From assembly GCA_017645765.1 (NCBI GenBank), contig JAGCNV010000058.1, positions 57,778 through 121,777 of the forward strand: a stretch of DNA of 64,000 bases, given 5' to 3'. The position numbers and the translations under genes were made by a program. The notes below the pieces were generated by a model, which saw nothing but the letters and a program-made list of their open reading frames with translations, ran no database searches and had not been told where the DNA came from. Positions 16,698 through 34,859 of this stretch are shown piece by piece. Numbering within the stretch: position 1 is the stretch's first letter; every line of letters begins with the position of its first letter. The DNA comes from a bacterium (lineage in GTDB: Bacteria > UBP6 > UBA1177).

Positions 16698-17898
16698 TTT
16701 TTCCCTCCGAATTATTTACAATATGCTGCCAGATATAATCTGCCACGATAGCGTTTCCTTTGTCGTTCCAATGAATGTCGTTCTTTATGAAAATAGATGA
16801 AATATCTTCATCGGACATCGCCTCAAAAGTATCAAAAAGCGAAATAAAATCAATATGATATTTGTCAGTATACTCTTTCCAGATATCATACTGTTTACGA
16901 CCGTTTTTATTATGCGCCTGAATCTCCCACGGCCATACTCCGATGTGGAGCTTTATCCCCTTCTCTTCACAAAGTTCACGAATAAGTTCAATATGTTTTT
17001 TAGCCGAAGCAATCCCTTTTTCGCCGTAAAGTTTCATCGCTTCATCGTCAAATGTCCAACGCGGTTTCCAACCGTAAAAATTAGCCAGCCCGCCCCAGAT
17101 CGGTGCGTTTTCATGATACGGATTAATCTGCATCGCAAAATAATCGGTTTTAGTACTTCTGTAAATGTATGAACCCTTAATAAAAAAGTTGTCGAGTTTC
17201 TGCCATTTTAACTCAGACTGAGAAAATTCTTTCGGCACGAAATAGTCGTAAACCACTTCATCAATAATATCGGAAATATCAATAAAAACATAAAGTTCAT
17301 CGATTTCCAAGCCCATTTCGAGAAAGTGTTTGAGTTTGAGGTAATAGATTTTCGGCGAATAACTTATTACTGCCGCGTTAAGAAGTTCGATTCCCTGTTT
17401 TTTAAAACGTTCCGATAAAATTCCCGGCACAGTCTGAGGCCACGGATAACCGACACCTTCCATAAAACTGTCACCCAAAATCATAATGCGCTTTCCGCTT
17501 TTTTTCAGCGGAACTTCACGGTCTGTCTCGTCAACAAAACCGAGAGAGTTTGTATAAACCTGATAGAATGAAACGCCGTCGCTTTTCCAAGAAGTCTTTT
17601 CATTGGCCATAGCCTTAAGACCGTGGTGATAAAAGTTGTCGGAGACTCTAAACGGATCGGCTTTGTTGAAAAGCATCGCTGCAACCGAATCAAAAAGCGC
17701 GATCAAAAAAAGAATAACGATAAAATTTATGCCGACGACCTTGAATGCAGTTCCTTTAAAAAACTTTTTCAGGATTAAAAAAAGCCCCAAAAATAAAAGG
17801 GCGACATAAAAAACAGGCGTTCCAACAACAAACATGGGCTGGATTTTATTCTTTCTAAAAAAAAATACCAGAAAAATCATACGAGACCGGCTTTTCAT
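16681..17898 (-). CDS. Membrane-anchored SGNH/GDSL-type hydrolase (esterase/acyltransferase-like)
   Basis: ILGDSFMEG (block I GDS) and NDIHWNDKG (block V DxxH). N-terminal TM helices. The start is chosen at the internal Met (MKSRSR...) to avoid overlap with the divergent neighbour; the track ORF extends to 17931. Confidence 0.6.
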   Translation of the reverse strand: MKSRSRMIFLVFFFRKNKIQPMFVVGTPVFYVALLFLGLFLILKKFFKGTAFKVVGINFIVILFLIALFDSVAAMLFNKADPFRVSDNFYHHGLKAMANEKTSWKSDGVSFYQVYTNSLGFVDETDREVPLKKSGKRIMILGDSFMEGVGYPWPQTVPGILSERFKKQGIELLNAAVISYSPKIYYLKLKHFLEMGLEIDELYVFIDISDIIDEVVYDYFVPKEFSQSELKWQKLDNFFIKGSYIYRSTKTDYFAMQINPYHENAPIWGGLANFYGWKPRWTFDDEAMKLYGEKGIASAKKHIELIRELCEEKGIKLHIGVWPWEIQAHNKNGRKQYDIWKEYTDKYHIDFISLFDTFEAMSDEDISSIFIKNDIHWNDKGNAIVADYIWQHIVNNSEGKNETAQ

Positions 17899-17998
17899 GG
17901 AAACTTCTGCACCCCACCGATATTTTGACAATAAAATTCAAGAATCCTTTTCATTGCGTATAATCACACGGTTTTTAGATTTTTTGGAAAAGACTGAG

Positions 17999-18754
17999 TT
18001 GAAAAAAAATCATTTTTTAGTAATCGCATTAGCCCTTTCGATTCTGCTTCACGCCTTGGCGTTTGTTTTCGCTCCAGAATTAAAAAGTGAAATAAATCCA
18101 AGTGATTACCTCAAGAAAATCACACGAATCTCGATTTTTCGGGACGACAGTAGCAGCGCACCGGAAAGTCGAAATGTCGAGAAGAAAAGCAGCGCGCCGG
18201 AAAATCGAAATATCGAAAAAAAACGCGCGCCGAAACCTCGAAATCTCGAAATATCGAAATCTCGAAATATCGATGAGAACAACAGCGCGCAAGATAGAAA
18301 TCTCGAAATATCGAAATCTCGAAATATCGATGAGAACAACAGCGCGCAAGATCGAAATCTCGAAATCTCGAAACCTCGAAATATCGACGACAAAAACAGC
18401 GCGCAAGATCGAAATATCGAAATATCGGAATCTCGAAATATCGACGACAAAAACAGCGCCCCGAAAACCGCAGGAGAACTTGCCGTGATTCCAAAGGCCA
18501 AAAACCCAAAAACCCCGCCCTACCCCGAAAGTCTTGAAGACGAAGGAATCGAAGGAAGCGTCACGCTTGAGCTTCTGATTTCGAAAGAAGGAAAAGTTTT
18601 AAAAGCAAAAGTTATAAAAAGTGACCACGAGCTTTTTTCGGAATCGGCTTTGCAGACAGTAAAAAACTACAGATTTTCTCCCGGGAAGCTGAAAGACGGC
18701 TCAGTGGTCGATTCGCTCATCGAATTTGTCATAAAATTTGAAATTTCCCTCTAA
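17999..18754 (+). CDS. TonB C-terminal-domain protein with internal 19-aa tandem repeats
   Basis: N-terminal TM anchor (HFLVIALALSILLHALAFVFAP), a repeat region (RNLEISKSRNIDENNSAQD x ~4), then a TonB_C-like C-terminus (PPYPESL...GIEGSVTLELLISKEGKV...VKNYRFSPGK). The track ORF starts at 17834. The probable start is a TTG near 17999 (MKKNHF...); an ATG at ~17897 is the alternative. Confidence 0.6.
   Translation: MKKNHFLVIALALSILLHALAFVFAPELKSEINPSDYLKKITRISIFRDDSSSAPESRNVEKKSSAPENRNIEKKRAPKPRNLEISKSRNIDENNSAQDRNLEISKSRNIDENNSAQDRNLEISKPRNIDDKNSAQDRNIEISESRNIDDKNSAPKTAGELAVIPKAKNPKTPPYPESLEDEGIEGSVTLELLISKEGKVLKAKVIKSDHELFSESALQTVKNYRFSPGKLKDGSVVDSLIEFVIKFEISL
18150..18470 (+). repeat. 57-bp coding tandem repeats (~4-5 copies) built on an 8-bp periodic TCGAAATN motif
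   Basis: aatctcgaaatatcgaaatctcgaaatatcgatgagaacaacagcgcgcaagat(a/c)gaa iterated. Produces repeat-like ORFs in all frames (18080-18509). Confidence 0.85.
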
Positions 18755-32722: not shown

Positions 32723-32837
32723 AAATCACCTCGAAACAAACCGTGGGATTATACTTATTTTGAAAATTTCTGAAATGAAATCCGCTTCCGCCGCACCAAA
32801 AAGAAAGAAGTTTAGTCTTCAAAATTAAGTTGACAAA

Positions 32838-32905
32838 TAACTCTGCAATTTGGCGGATTTTTACTCGGTAATTTGGCGAAATTTCATTCGGTGTTTTGGC
32901 AGATT
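32838..32905 (+). repeat. Three tandem 23-bp direct repeats (AATTTGGCGnATTTTnAyTCGGT) downstream of the DUF4143 ATPase gene
   Basis: aatttggcggatttttactcggt / aatttggcgaaatttcattcggt / gttttggcagattccagagatt. Confidence 0.8.
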
Positions 32906-32944
32906 CCAGAGATTAATTTACATAAGAATTTTAGTTGTAGACCT

Positions 32945-34222
32945 CTAATCTTTAAGACAACCTATCGGAACGATATAAACATCATCTTCGCGCTTGTAAG
33001 CAAAACTGCCTTTTCCGACCAAAACCATCATAAAAGAGGGCGATGGCATTTTGTCAGTATCAATTCTGTTTCTAAGAGCTTTAAGTGTCTGCGCTCCGTG
33101 TTCTATTGCATCTTCGCCTCCGAGTTTGATTTCGACAAGCCCGTATCTGCCGTCACGCAGATGAATGACCGCGTCGCATTCCAAACCCGATTTGTCGCGG
33201 TAATGATAAACTTGTCCGTTCAGTGAATCGGCATAGACACGCAAATCCCTGACGCACAAGGTTTCAAAAATAAATCCGAAAGTGTTGAGGTCATTTATCA
33301 AATCATTCGGCCCGAGTCCGAGAGACGCAACAGCTATTGAGGGATCTGTAAAATAACGGGTATCAGAAGTGCGGACAGCGGTTTTTGACCTTAAATTGGG
33401 ATTCCATGCCGGCATATCTTCAATAACAAAAATCTTTTTCAGTGCGTTGATGTATGAAACGACAGTGTCAACATCCAATTTGTCGGAATCGTTGACCAGC
33501 ATATCCTGCCGGATTGCCTCATTTGATGCCTGAGTTCCCTGACATCTGGCGTAAGATTTTAAAAGTCTTTTCGTCCTTTCAGGCTCACGTCTTATATTAT
33601 CAACTCTTGAAACATCAATGTTTTCAACTGCTTGCATATAGTTATATGCGTGCTCAAGAGCTATATCGCCATCAAGTTCAAGCGTTGTAGGCCAGCCGCC
33701 GCGGCATGCGAGATATGCGATTTGTTCAATATCGTTTATGTTGTTTTTTCCTGAAATTTCGGTTGTTTGCGAGAAAAGATCTTCTAAACTGACCGAACCG
33801 TCCGATTCACCCGATTCAAAAAGACTCATTGTCCGCATTTTCAACCATGTGACTCTTCCTGTTCCAGAATGAAAAATCTTCTCTCTGTCAGCGGGGACAG
33901 CCGAACCGGTTAATATAAACTGCCCCACTTTGTTTCTGTGATCGACCTCAAACCTTACCGCGTCCCAGATTGAAGGCGCAATCTGCCATTCGTCCAGCAG
34001 CCTAGGAGTTTCTCCTTCAAGTAAAAGACTCGGTTTAAGCTGAGACAGCCTGATATTTTGAGCCATTTCATCTGGATTTGCTATATAAAGCACACTTTTG
34101 GAAGCATGTTCAGCCGAAGTGGTTTTTCCGCACAGTTTAGGTCCTTCAATTAAAATTGCCCCTATCCCTTTCAGTTTTTTTTCAATCAATTTGTCAACGA
34201 TACGATTTCTGTATTTACTCAT
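32945..34222 (-). CDS. AAA-family ATP-binding protein with DUF4143-type C-terminal domain
   Basis: Walker A in IEGPKLCGKTTSAEH. Overall architecture (AAA_14-like N-terminus, ~425 aa) is typical of the widespread 'ATP-binding protein, DUF4143' family. GGAGGTGG RBS; start taken at the third codon (MSKYRN). Confidence 0.75.
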   Translation of the reverse strand: MSKYRNRIVDKLIEKKLKGIGAILIEGPKLCGKTTSAEHASKSVLYIANPDEMAQNIRLSQLKPSLLLEGETPRLLDEWQIAPSIWDAVRFEVDHRNKVGQFILTGSAVPADREKIFHSGTGRVTWLKMRTMSLFESGESDGSVSLEDLFSQTTEISGKNNINDIEQIAYLACRGGWPTTLELDGDIALEHAYNYMQAVENIDVSRVDNIRREPERTKRLLKSYARCQGTQASNEAIRQDMLVNDSDKLDVDTVVSYINALKKIFVIEDMPAWNPNLRSKTAVRTSDTRYFTDPSIAVASLGLGPNDLINDLNTFGFIFETLCVRDLRVYADSLNGQVYHYRDKSGLECDAVIHLRDGRYGLVEIKLGGEDAIEHGAQTLKALRNRIDTDKMPSPSFMMVLVGKGSFAYKREDDVYIVPIGCLKD

Positions 34223-34250
34223 AAGCATCCACCTCCAATGCGCAGAATAG

Positions 34251-34372
34251 TGCCAATTCGGTAAATTGTCAATTTTTCATTCGGTAATTTGGCGAAATTC
34301 TATTCGGCGATTTGGTGTATTTTTATTATATAATTTGGCGGATTTTCACTTTATATTTTGGCGCGTTTTTAT
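34251..34372 (+). repeat. Five tandem 23-bp direct repeats of the same AATTTGGCG family, immediately upstream of (5' to) the ATPase gene
   Basis: aaattgtcaatttttcattcggt / aatttggcgaaattctattcggc / gatttggtgtatttttattatat / aatttggcggattttcactttat / attttggcgcgtttttatttttt. Same orientation as the array at 32838-32905, with which it shares the 17-mer cggtaatttggcgaaat. Confidence 0.8.
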
Positions 34373-34376
34373 TTTT

Positions 34377-34859
34377 TCAGTCTTTTACCCACTCTTCAAC
34401 CAAATCGGTCGTCATCGTGCCGGTGTGAACTTTCTTTATCACGCCGTCCTTAACGAGAAGTGTTGTCGGGAGAACTGAAATATAGAGATCTTCAAAAAAT
34501 TCATCCTGAGCAATGACACTTTTGAAATCCGGTGAAACTTCACGGTAGACTTCGTATTTGAAGACAGGTTTTATCACGCCGTAAACCTGATGTTTTGCTG
34601 CAACTTTATTGAGTTCCGGCATTTCAGAAATGCACGCTCCGCACCACGTTGCCCAGATGTTAAGAATGACCTCGCCTTTTGATAGATCCAGAGAGGTTCT
34701 CCGGCCGGTCTGAGGATCAACACCTGAAATTTCGCGGAGTTCGCGCCCCGGAAGGAATATAGACGCGCCGAAATACGAAAACACATTGAACAGAAGGACA
34801 ACTATAACAAGTGAAAAAATGATAATGTGAAAAATTTTGCTGCTCTTTTTTTCTTCCAT
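34377..34859 (-). CDS. TlpA/ResA-like membrane-anchored thiol:disulfide oxidoreductase (thioredoxin fold)
   Basis: WCGAC active-site motif (NIWATWCGACISEMPEL). N-terminal TM anchor. 160 aa. Start overlaps the stop of the upstream glycosyltransferase gene. Confidence 0.8.
   Translation of the reverse strand: MEEKKSSKIFHIIIFSLVIVVLLFNVFSYFGASIFLPGRELREISGVDPQTGRRTSLDLSKGEVILNIWATWCGACISEMPELNKVAAKHQVYGVIKPVFKYEVYREVSPDFKSVIAQDEFFEDLYISVLPTTLLVKDGVIKKVHTGTMTTDLVEEWVKD

Follow-up and report, generated by a model that had tools for sequence, protein, structure and literature searches.

Two repeat arrays beside an ATPase-nuclease gene

The 64-kb stretch of contig JAGCNV010000058.1 analysed here, referred to throughout as the window, contains on its minus strand a gene encoding an AAA+ ATPase fused to a PD-(D/E)XK nuclease. 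Direct repeats of 23 bp are located on both sides of this gene, upstream at its promoter (array U) and downstream of its stop codon (array D). The features at the core of the locus are as follows:

34249 to 34363, minus strand: array U, five head-to-tail 23-bp units upstream of the ATPase gene
34244 to 34272, minus strand: sigma-70-like promoter of the ATPase gene, with TTGACA at 34272-34267, a 17-bp spacer and TATTCT at 34249-34244; it overlaps U5
32945 to 34222, minus strand: ATPase-nuclease gene, 425 amino acids, comprising an AAA_14 ATPase, a central helix-turn-helix-like region and a C-terminal PD-(D/E)XK nuclease (DUF4143)
32833 to 32901, minus strand: array D, three 23-bp units downstream of the gene, oriented as U

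Read on the gene (minus) strand, with U1 distal and U5 proximal to the gene, the units of array U (34363-34249) are CGCCAAAATATAAAGTGAAAATC, CGCCAAATTATATAATAAAAATA, CACCAAATCGCCGAATAGAATTT, CGCCAAATTACCGAATGAAAAAT and TGACAATTTACCGAATTGGCACT, while D1 to D3 (32901-32833) are TGCCAAAACACCGAATGAAATTT, CGCCAAATTACCGAGTAAAAATC and CGCCAAATTGCAGAGTTATTTGT. Tandem Repeats Finder identified period-23 repeats in the window at 32840-32900 (2.7 copies) and 34256-34363. A repeat search showed that one 23-bp register holds every copy, with an offset of 1416 bp between the arrays, and the 17-mer CGGTAATTTGGCGAAAT is common to both (32866-32882 and 34282-34298). The tandem-repeat and motif searches therefore agree that the arrays exist close to where a preliminary description of this DNA had placed them, on the same strand, in the same orientation and with a shared 17-mer. 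When up to two mismatches were allowed, AATTTGGCGNATTT gave 16 matches in the window compared with 5.75 ± 2.5 in shuffled sequence, and 0 of 100 shuffles reached 16. All matches with 0 or 1 mismatch fall inside arrays U and D, and no further close copy of the 23-mer was found elsewhere in the 64-kb window. Within the window, close matches are thus confined to the two arrays rather than dispersed; dispersal at unrelated loci across the genome is a finding that the preliminary description had named as contradicting its view.

Several other readings of the repeats were discarded. A REP-like dispersed repeat was rejected on account of this confinement within the 64-kb window and because the array accompanies the gene from genome to genome. 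The CRISPR-array reading fails as the units are contiguous, with no spacers between them. An RNA element was dropped since no Rfam family was above threshold in the window and RNA from the gene strand of the array folds no better than its shuffles (z = −0.74); the value for the opposite strand (z = −2.48) is that expected of G/U-rich repeats.

The probable start codon of the ATPase-nuclease gene is the ATG at 34222, which follows the ribosome-binding site GGAGGTG, and the 425-residue product corresponds to the protein on record. The protein matches the Pfam families AAA_14 (PF13173; 3.6e-12, residues 24-138) and DUF4143 (6.8e-32), the latter with its PD-(D/E)XK nuclease core at the C-terminus, and alignments of the homologues show no variation in the Walker A motif, GPKLCGKT. 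DUF4143 was assigned to the PD-(D/E)XK superfamily in 2012. The PADLOC model for PDC-S01 (PDLC04790) aligns residues 1-423 with profile positions 8-417 of 422 (E = 2.5e-56); the window gene is a full-length member of PDC-S01, which comprises DUF4143/COG1373 AAA+ ATPases with a PD-(D/E)XK nuclease. PDC-S01, with ~39,000 loci in one survey, has been reported as the 4th most common defence candidate in prokaryotes, with validation pending, and as the single defence locus encountered most often in rumen genomes (PMC12988326, PMC13356809).

The upstream array across the gene family

The homologues identified early in the analysis, from Sharpea, Succinivibrio and two unclassified rumen bacteria, have three to five head-to-tail 23-bp units upstream of the gene, built around a (C/T)GCCAA core. 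The main comparison comprised 80 loci in contigs from one genome per species, encoding proteins 60-77% identical to that of the window, from Bacillota, Bacteroidota, Spirochaetota, Lentisphaerota/Verrucomicrobiota, Actinomycetota and Negativicutes; array-bearing homologous loci span at least six phyla, Pseudomonadota included. Unbiased autocorrelation identified 23 bp as the top upstream period in 74 of 79 loci and found no preferred period downstream of the gene at the same loci. With an array defined by neighbouring 23-mers that are at least 65% identical, 76 of the 80 loci passed upstream of the gene, 67 of them with three or more units. By comparison, no more than 5 of the 80 passed at any other period from 19 to 27 bp, and 1 of the 80 when the upstream sequence was shuffled. 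Downstream of the gene, two loci passed at a period of 23 bp: the window itself and one poly-A artefact. Homologues without any flanking repeats had been named in the preliminary description as evidence against its view. The repeats are present upstream of the homologues but are missing downstream.

In a wider set the array was observed at 98 of 103 loci, with 2-8 units, most often three or four (mode 3), that end at a median of 57 bp before the start codon. Among loci on viral contigs, whose proteins display 41-64% identity, 23 bp was the best period in 28 of 30, with units that are very different in sequence (for example TACCGCAAAAACACAAAGTAAA and GAAANTTGTAAAGCAAAANGCCT). Annotated plasmid records with 23-bp arrays include those from Bacteroides ovatus (60% identity), Collinsella (40%), Prosthecochloris (30%) and Lentilactobacillus (28%); the array of Actinomyces is weak, and a 23-bp array was not seen beside the Thermus homologue (25% identity). 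The repeats are annotated in none of these plasmid records. The period of 23 bp persists to ~28-30% protein identity while the sequence of the unit diverges. The sole constant neighbour of the array is the ATPase gene, the other adjoining genes differing in every lineage examined. The upstream array is a conserved, promoter-abutting hallmark of the PDC-S01 gene family, and array, promoter and gene are inherited and horizontally transferred as one module.

The consensus of the unit across the family, with one vote per locus, is cGCCAAat-nn-CCGAA-n-AAAAwtt, in which information is maximal at unit positions 2-6 and 11-15, followed by an A-tract. Each unit contains two half-sites ~8-9 bp apart, which in the window's clade are GCCAA and CCGAA; in the window they are intact in D1 and D2, and D3 is degenerate. 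At some spirochaete loci the second half-site is another GCCAAAT, 8 bp after the first, and thus the unit itself consists of two direct half-sites. The array is also phased with respect to the promoter. A sigma-70 promoter can be recognised at 32 loci; the distance from the start of the last core to the start of the −35 box is exactly 19 bp at 21 of these and falls between 17 and 21 bp at 27. As a result of this fixed 19-bp phasing the last unit abuts the −35 box, and its second half-site has its centre near −42. A further, partial unit in the window's clade places ACCGAAT into the promoter spacer. The promoter in the window, which matches the sigma-70 boxes at 10 of 12 positions, has its −35 box inside U5, where it replaces the first half-site, and ACCGAAT is retained within the spacer. 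Bacteroidota loci have the same array followed by a TAnnTTTG-like sequence (for example TATCTTTGC), which we take to be the Bacteroidota type of promoter.

Repeats of a different period were observed in a DUF4143 subfamily of 452-456 amino acids, where three direct repeats at ~33-34 bp lie upstream of the gene. These were found at L028 and L149 (individual loci are given L numbers), and also in the upstream regions of L155 and L156; examples are TACTTTGCGCATAGCTG in L028 (L028:4270-5756) and AAAATCTTGATTTGGTG in L149 (L149:1470-1570). At L028 both DUF4143 subfamilies occur in tandem, each with its own array. Tentatively, the period of the array may be subfamily-specific, at 23 bp versus ~33-34 bp in the 452-456-residue subfamily.

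Some of the sequences further upstream also merit description. At L011:1-120 (Sharpea azabuensis, GCA_902760635.1) the contig ends just upstream of the array in sequence resembling domain V of a group II intron (CCGTATACGAGATCCGTACGTACGG). Such intron-like sequence probably explains the frequent contig breaks upstream of the ATPase gene; in the Sharpea contigs L010 and L013 an ABC-transporter gene takes its place. In Succinivibrio (L016:1892-3268) the array is preceded, at a distance of ~700 bp, by an IS110-family transposase gene on the opposite strand.

The insertion hotspot and the downstream array

The module described above resides, in the window, between two genes that are contiguous in relatives. 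The features of this region, beyond those already listed, are:

34377 to 34859, minus strand: TlpA-like thioredoxin-fold gene forming the left flank, from domain search and synteny
32819 to 34376, minus strand: lineage-specific cargo of ~1.56 kb, comprising U, the promoter, the gene, a 43-nt spacer, D and a promoter remnant
32809 to 32836, minus strand: degenerate promoter-like remnant after D (TTGTCA, 16-bp spacer, TAAACT), in which TGTCAA aligns with the TGACAA −35 unit of L161
32782 to 32818, minus strand: right border of the hotspot, 37 nt, reading AGACTAAACTTCTTTCTTTTTGGTGCGGCGGAAGCGG on the gene strand and common to L148 and L151
30779 to 32722, minus strand: transglutaminase-like gene forming the right flank, with its own TATAAT box and ribosome-binding site, which are conserved in the empty-site relatives

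The limits of the cargo were set against empty sites (L101/L102 and L110-L113) and against loci with other cargos (L103, L148, L149 and L151). Domain searches corroborated the neighbours assigned in the preliminary description, TlpA-like/GT39 on one side and transglutaminase-like on the other. That description had also recommended a search for loci lacking the ATPase, and it is these empty sites that were found. They occur in relatives in which the transglutaminase gene is 89% and 92% identical to that of the window, and consist of tlpA, ~60 bp and the transglutaminase gene, bearing out the proposal that the ATPase gene was inserted between otherwise contiguous genes. Elsewhere the same gap holds a PF09820 and PDDEXK_9 ATPase-nuclease (L103), a WYL/WCX regulator with four unknown open reading frames (ORFs; L148), a different 456-residue DUF4143 gene with a MYG1-like gene (L149) or an unknown ORF of 340 residues (L151). 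The right-border region displays a 93-nt blastn match to L151 at 92% identity. As this border is common to loci with unrelated cargo (L148 and L151), it is part of the hotspot and not of the ATPase cassette. Similarly, a 7-9-bp direct repeat, AGACTRA, from the 3' end of tlpA flanks the cargo in the window, L148 and L151 regardless of content, and so is a feature of the hotspot rather than of this cassette. The gap between tlpA and the transglutaminase gene is a cargo-swapping hotspot into which the window gene was inserted. As context for the candidate role in phage defence, the variability of the hotspot and the presence in it of a WYL-regulator locus and further ATPase-nuclease genes are no more than suggestive. 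A distant homologue in Actinomyces oris (L165, NZ_CP116225.1) adjoins a type I-U cas3 gene, a setting consistent with a defence island.

Among the loci examined, array D is peculiar to the lineage of the window. In a matrix scan of 68 loci, in which the units of each locus were searched for in both orientations over the 500 bp downstream of its gene, a strong downstream unit was detected only in the window, scoring 20.9 bits versus ≤13 (forward) and ≤16 (reverse) elsewhere. Two or more GCCAA cores 23 bp apart were found downstream at 0 of the 80 genome-collection loci, and array D is absent from the empty sites and from the sister cassettes L160/L161 and L107. The closest cassettes to that of the window are L161 (95.9% nucleotide identity in the ORF) and L160 (87%), both in a genomic context different from the window's. 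Array D is colinear, unit by unit, with the upstream module of L160/L161, matching it at 48 of the first 55 nt (87%; manual count on the alignment). This match exceeds that between D and U, and the colinearity extends to the TG(A/T)CAA −35 unit. Two further arrangements are pertinent: L151, at the same hotspot, contains a solitary relic unit that shares a 15-mer with D1, and at L028, where one DUF4143 gene follows another, the array beyond the first gene is simply that which precedes the second. Between D and the right border, where ~18 nt remain, there is no trace of a second ATPase coding remnant.

From these alignments array D is read as the decayed array and −35 box of a second, sister copy of the cassette, the ORF of which would have been lost. 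Such an origin would account for the orientation of D, which is that of U, and for its place at the distal edge of the cargo. The bracketing of the gene by arrays is a local accident of history. Among the options put forward in the preliminary description, a promoter-proximal autoregulatory array that was duplicated comes closest, in that the upstream array is conserved at the promoter and the downstream array appears to be a decayed copy of such a module. Repeats also occur in the first 120 bp past the ATPase stop codon at two other loci, namely a (GAGTTAG)n run followed by its reverse complement at L047, and 22-bp-spaced hairpin-like AAACAGCCTGTTTT units at L071; in each case they are unlike the upstream array of the same locus.

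Alternatively, array D could be functional in the window, either as a second operator for looping of the ATPase gene or by coupling the transglutaminase operon to the ATPase. The half-sites of D1 and D2 are as intact as those of any U unit, the array is located ~110 bp upstream of the transglutaminase start, where the promoter-like TTGTCA-16-TAAACT follows it, and its sequence is identical in nine independent metagenome contigs. These contigs are, however, essentially clonal, and thus their identity says little about selection. Furthermore, D is conserved at no other locus, D3 and the −35 unit are decayed, and the native promoter and ribosome-binding site of the transglutaminase gene are kept downstream, as in the empty sites. 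On this evidence a functional array D is considered unlikely, and the remnant of a second cassette copy is preferred.

Repeats of other kinds are present elsewhere in the window. The plus-strand ORF 17834-18754 contains, at 18152-18459, a dense tandem repeat of 8 bp (CGAAATCT) and 57 bp, which is a coding low-complexity stretch rather than an intergenic array. Positions 779-1184 contain ~17 copies of a 21-bp repeat (ATCCGACTGACGAACCGACAA) and then 12-bp repeats.

Recognition of the array and comparison with known systems

The identity of the protein that reads the array was explored by grouping the loci according to their second half-site and setting these groups against the alignment of the proteins. 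Residues 234-255 account for 9 of the 20 most informative columns. Residue 252 is D in 30 of the 36 loci with CCGAA as second half-site, E in 19 of the 21 with TCGGA and K in 6 of the 9 with AGGAA. The motif class changes on 20 branches of a tree built without the residue-252 region. In a Fitch co-change test on this tree, 8 of the 16 changes at residue 252 coincide with those branches (p = 1.6e-4), which ranks it 1st of all columns; residues 246, 239, 250 and 241 were also in the top 13. Residue 252 is at the start of the predicted recognition helix, and the pairing of an acidic residue with a C-rich site, and of lysine with a G-rich site, is chemically sensible.

The AlphaFold2 model of the protein (mean pLDDT 58.8) is usable for residues 140-425, in which helices at 214-226, 234-242 and 251-264 and short strands precede the PD-(D/E)XK fold; the ‘wing' is below 50 and the N-terminal ATPase domain was not resolved. 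A profile search for distant homologues returned only proteins that are at least 61% identical, and the N-terminal domain of the model stayed poor because only these were available for the alignment. No relatives in the PDB were identified by single-sequence or profile search. The coherent covariation, the co-inheritance of array and gene and the helix-turn-helix-like fold suggest that the array is probably read by the predicted helix-turn-helix of the ATPase-nuclease itself.

It is reasonably likely, in the light of these data, that the array is an iteron-like autoregulatory operator or assembly site read by the ATPase-nuclease, and that the downstream array is a decayed second copy. The gene product would read the array through its central helix-turn-helix, with residue 252 contacting the second half-site. 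Binding would proceed head to tail along the array, cooperatively and perhaps coupled to AAA+ oligomerisation, and would control the protein's own transcription. Such regulation leans to repression, which is favoured by the half-site that lies inside the promoter spacer in the window's clade.

It should be noted that several points weigh against this interpretation. The p value of the covariation is ~0.05 once corrected for ~330 columns, and long branches are able to inflate the co-changes in the test. Pfam helix-turn-helix families gave zero matches to residues 200-300, and the argument for self-binding draws on co-inheritance, covariation and the mediocre model described above. A site ending at ~−42 suits an activator no less than a repressor. 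Enough of D1 and D2 is preserved for them to be bound, provided that U is, such that D could be functional, for example as a second operator; D may have arisen by tandem duplication followed by deletion, or by serial insertion.

A more speculative extension, to which only a small probability is attached, is that the array is a nucleation track on which the AAA+/helix-turn-helix/nuclease protein polymerises, with one protomer or dimer per 23 bp, and that the resulting filament on cognate DNA is part of the PDC-S01 mechanism. If this were true the nuclease may be held inactive on ‘self' DNA until infection. An alternative role would be to promote recombination beside arrays, which would account for the mobility of the single gene across phyla and for the stacking of cassettes (window and L028). 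The strict period below 30% identity (23 bp; ~34 bp in the 452-456-residue subfamily) would then reflect the geometry of the filament.

An operator read by the ATPase-nuclease has also to be distinguished from a promoter architecture read by the host, in which the array would act as an UP-element-like or bent A-tract DNA or would be bound by a ubiquitous host transcription factor. Consistent with the latter, an A-tract closes each unit, the array is directly upstream of the −35 box and its core, tCGCCA, matches TTGACA at 4 of 6 positions. Most of the information, however, resides in the GC-rich half-sites, and bending by A-tracts requires a period of 10.5 or 21 bp, with which 23 bp is out of phase. 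In addition, the array is kept in hosts with different promoter types, and the motif classes track the protein and not the host phylum, covarying with residue 252. A host-read architecture is thus improbable, and recognition by the ATPase-nuclease is favoured.

One of the options in the preliminary description was a small mobile or selfish cassette with the two arrays as its ends. Such a cassette, the ends of which could be recognised by the ATPase-nuclease that it encodes or, in trans, by a recombinase, is very unlikely. The gene is indeed an insertion for which empty sites exist, it has spread across phyla at 60-77% identity, and in three contexts the shared DNA has its 5' limit at the first array unit and its 3' limit no more than ~10 nt from the stop codon. 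These observations are outweighed by the structure of the locus. No downstream unit rises above background, in either orientation, at the other loci tested, and L160/L161 and L107 have no array D. The arrays are direct and not inverted, the single-gene cargo is without a transposase or integrase gene, and the sequence at the far right, the hotspot border, is common to unrelated cargos. The insert ends on the right with a core-like sequence in inverted orientation, TTTTTGGTGCGGCGG; it was considered as a terminal inverted repeat and dropped, as the segment is common to L148 and L151 with their unrelated cargo.

There is similarly little to recommend a contingency locus, in which slippage would alter the number of units and switch a costly defence gene by phase variation. 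The number of units varies from 2 to 8 between loci, and near-identical ORFs (96% at the nucleotide level) differ in the unit content of their arrays. Such variation is not evident within strains: there is no change of copy number among the nine contigs of the window strain, and the Sharpea arrays are (near-)identical between contigs, which differ because of unrelated DNA further upstream. Units of the same array are only 60-90% identical and hence poor substrates for slippage, while the conservation of the half-sites and the covariation of the residues indicate recognition by a protein, making phase variation highly improbable.

Finally, although three to seven direct repeats ~22-23 bp apart beside the gene for a DNA-binding protein, and the presence of some homologues on plasmids, recall the iterons of a replication origin or a partition centromere, such a function is extremely unlikely as domain searches revealed no Rep or Par domain, the window gene is a single-gene insertion in chromosomal synteny and the homologues on plasmids are cargo of large plasmids, one of them with a typed replicon of its own. 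The iteron-type array suggested in the preliminary description therefore holds as to form, with direct repeats that are spaced by about two helical turns and adjoin the gene of a DNA-binding protein, but not as to replication or partition.

The autoregulatory operator or assembly site thus remains the preferred view of array U. The repeats of the PDC-S01 family are previously undescribed in the searchable literature, in which no mention of an upstream repeat array, a DNA-binding domain or autoregulation was found for PDC-S01/DUF4143, and they are a deeply conserved cis element of an abundant, uncharacterised family. This travelling element provides the first concrete, testable molecular handle for the family. 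It points to a cognate DNA sequence, to a residue predicted to read that DNA and to a circuit of autoregulation that is likewise predicted. In practical terms, cloning of PDC-S01 genes with ~150 bp of ‘native promoter' would bring the putative operator along, and the array can be used as a signature to annotate members of the family and their promoters. The history of the window becomes that of an insertion into a cargo-swapping hotspot with a leftover promoter module, and the mobile-element reading is removed.

Among known systems, the sites bound by TnsB of Tn7 and by MuA of Mu are clustered protein-binding repeats of ~22 bp, and Tn7 pairs a PD-(D/E)XK nuclease, TnsA, with an AAA+ ATPase, TnsC. 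The end sites of these elements are inverted at the two ends and require a DDE transposase. By contrast, there is one array per gene in the PDC-S01 family, upstream only and without a transposase. The ParR/parC system of R1 and the omega heptads of pSM19035 consist of short direct repeats at the promoter of the binder's operon, where cooperative, polymer-like binding leads to autoregulation. The likeness to the array described here would be the position of the repeats at the promoter of the gene for the presumed binder. The units are 11 bp or 7 bp in those systems, whereas the unit here is bipartite and 23 bp long; their binders are small ribbon-helix-helix proteins, and there is no partition ATPase partner here. 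The iterons of theta plasmids (R6K, pPS10, RK2, F and P1) comprise three to seven head-to-tail repeats of ~22-23 bp with an A/T-rich part, beside the gene for a Rep protein of the winged-helix type. The array resembles them in repeat number, period, A/T-rich part and place beside the gene of the presumed binder, and its 23-bp spacing is close to that of iterons, which are direct repeats of 17-22 bp spaced at ~22 bp. It differs in having no Rep_3 or RepA-type initiator, origin context or plasmid; instead, the adjoining gene encodes an AAA+ ATPase fused to a PD-(D/E)XK nuclease, and the array abuts the promoter in a fixed register.

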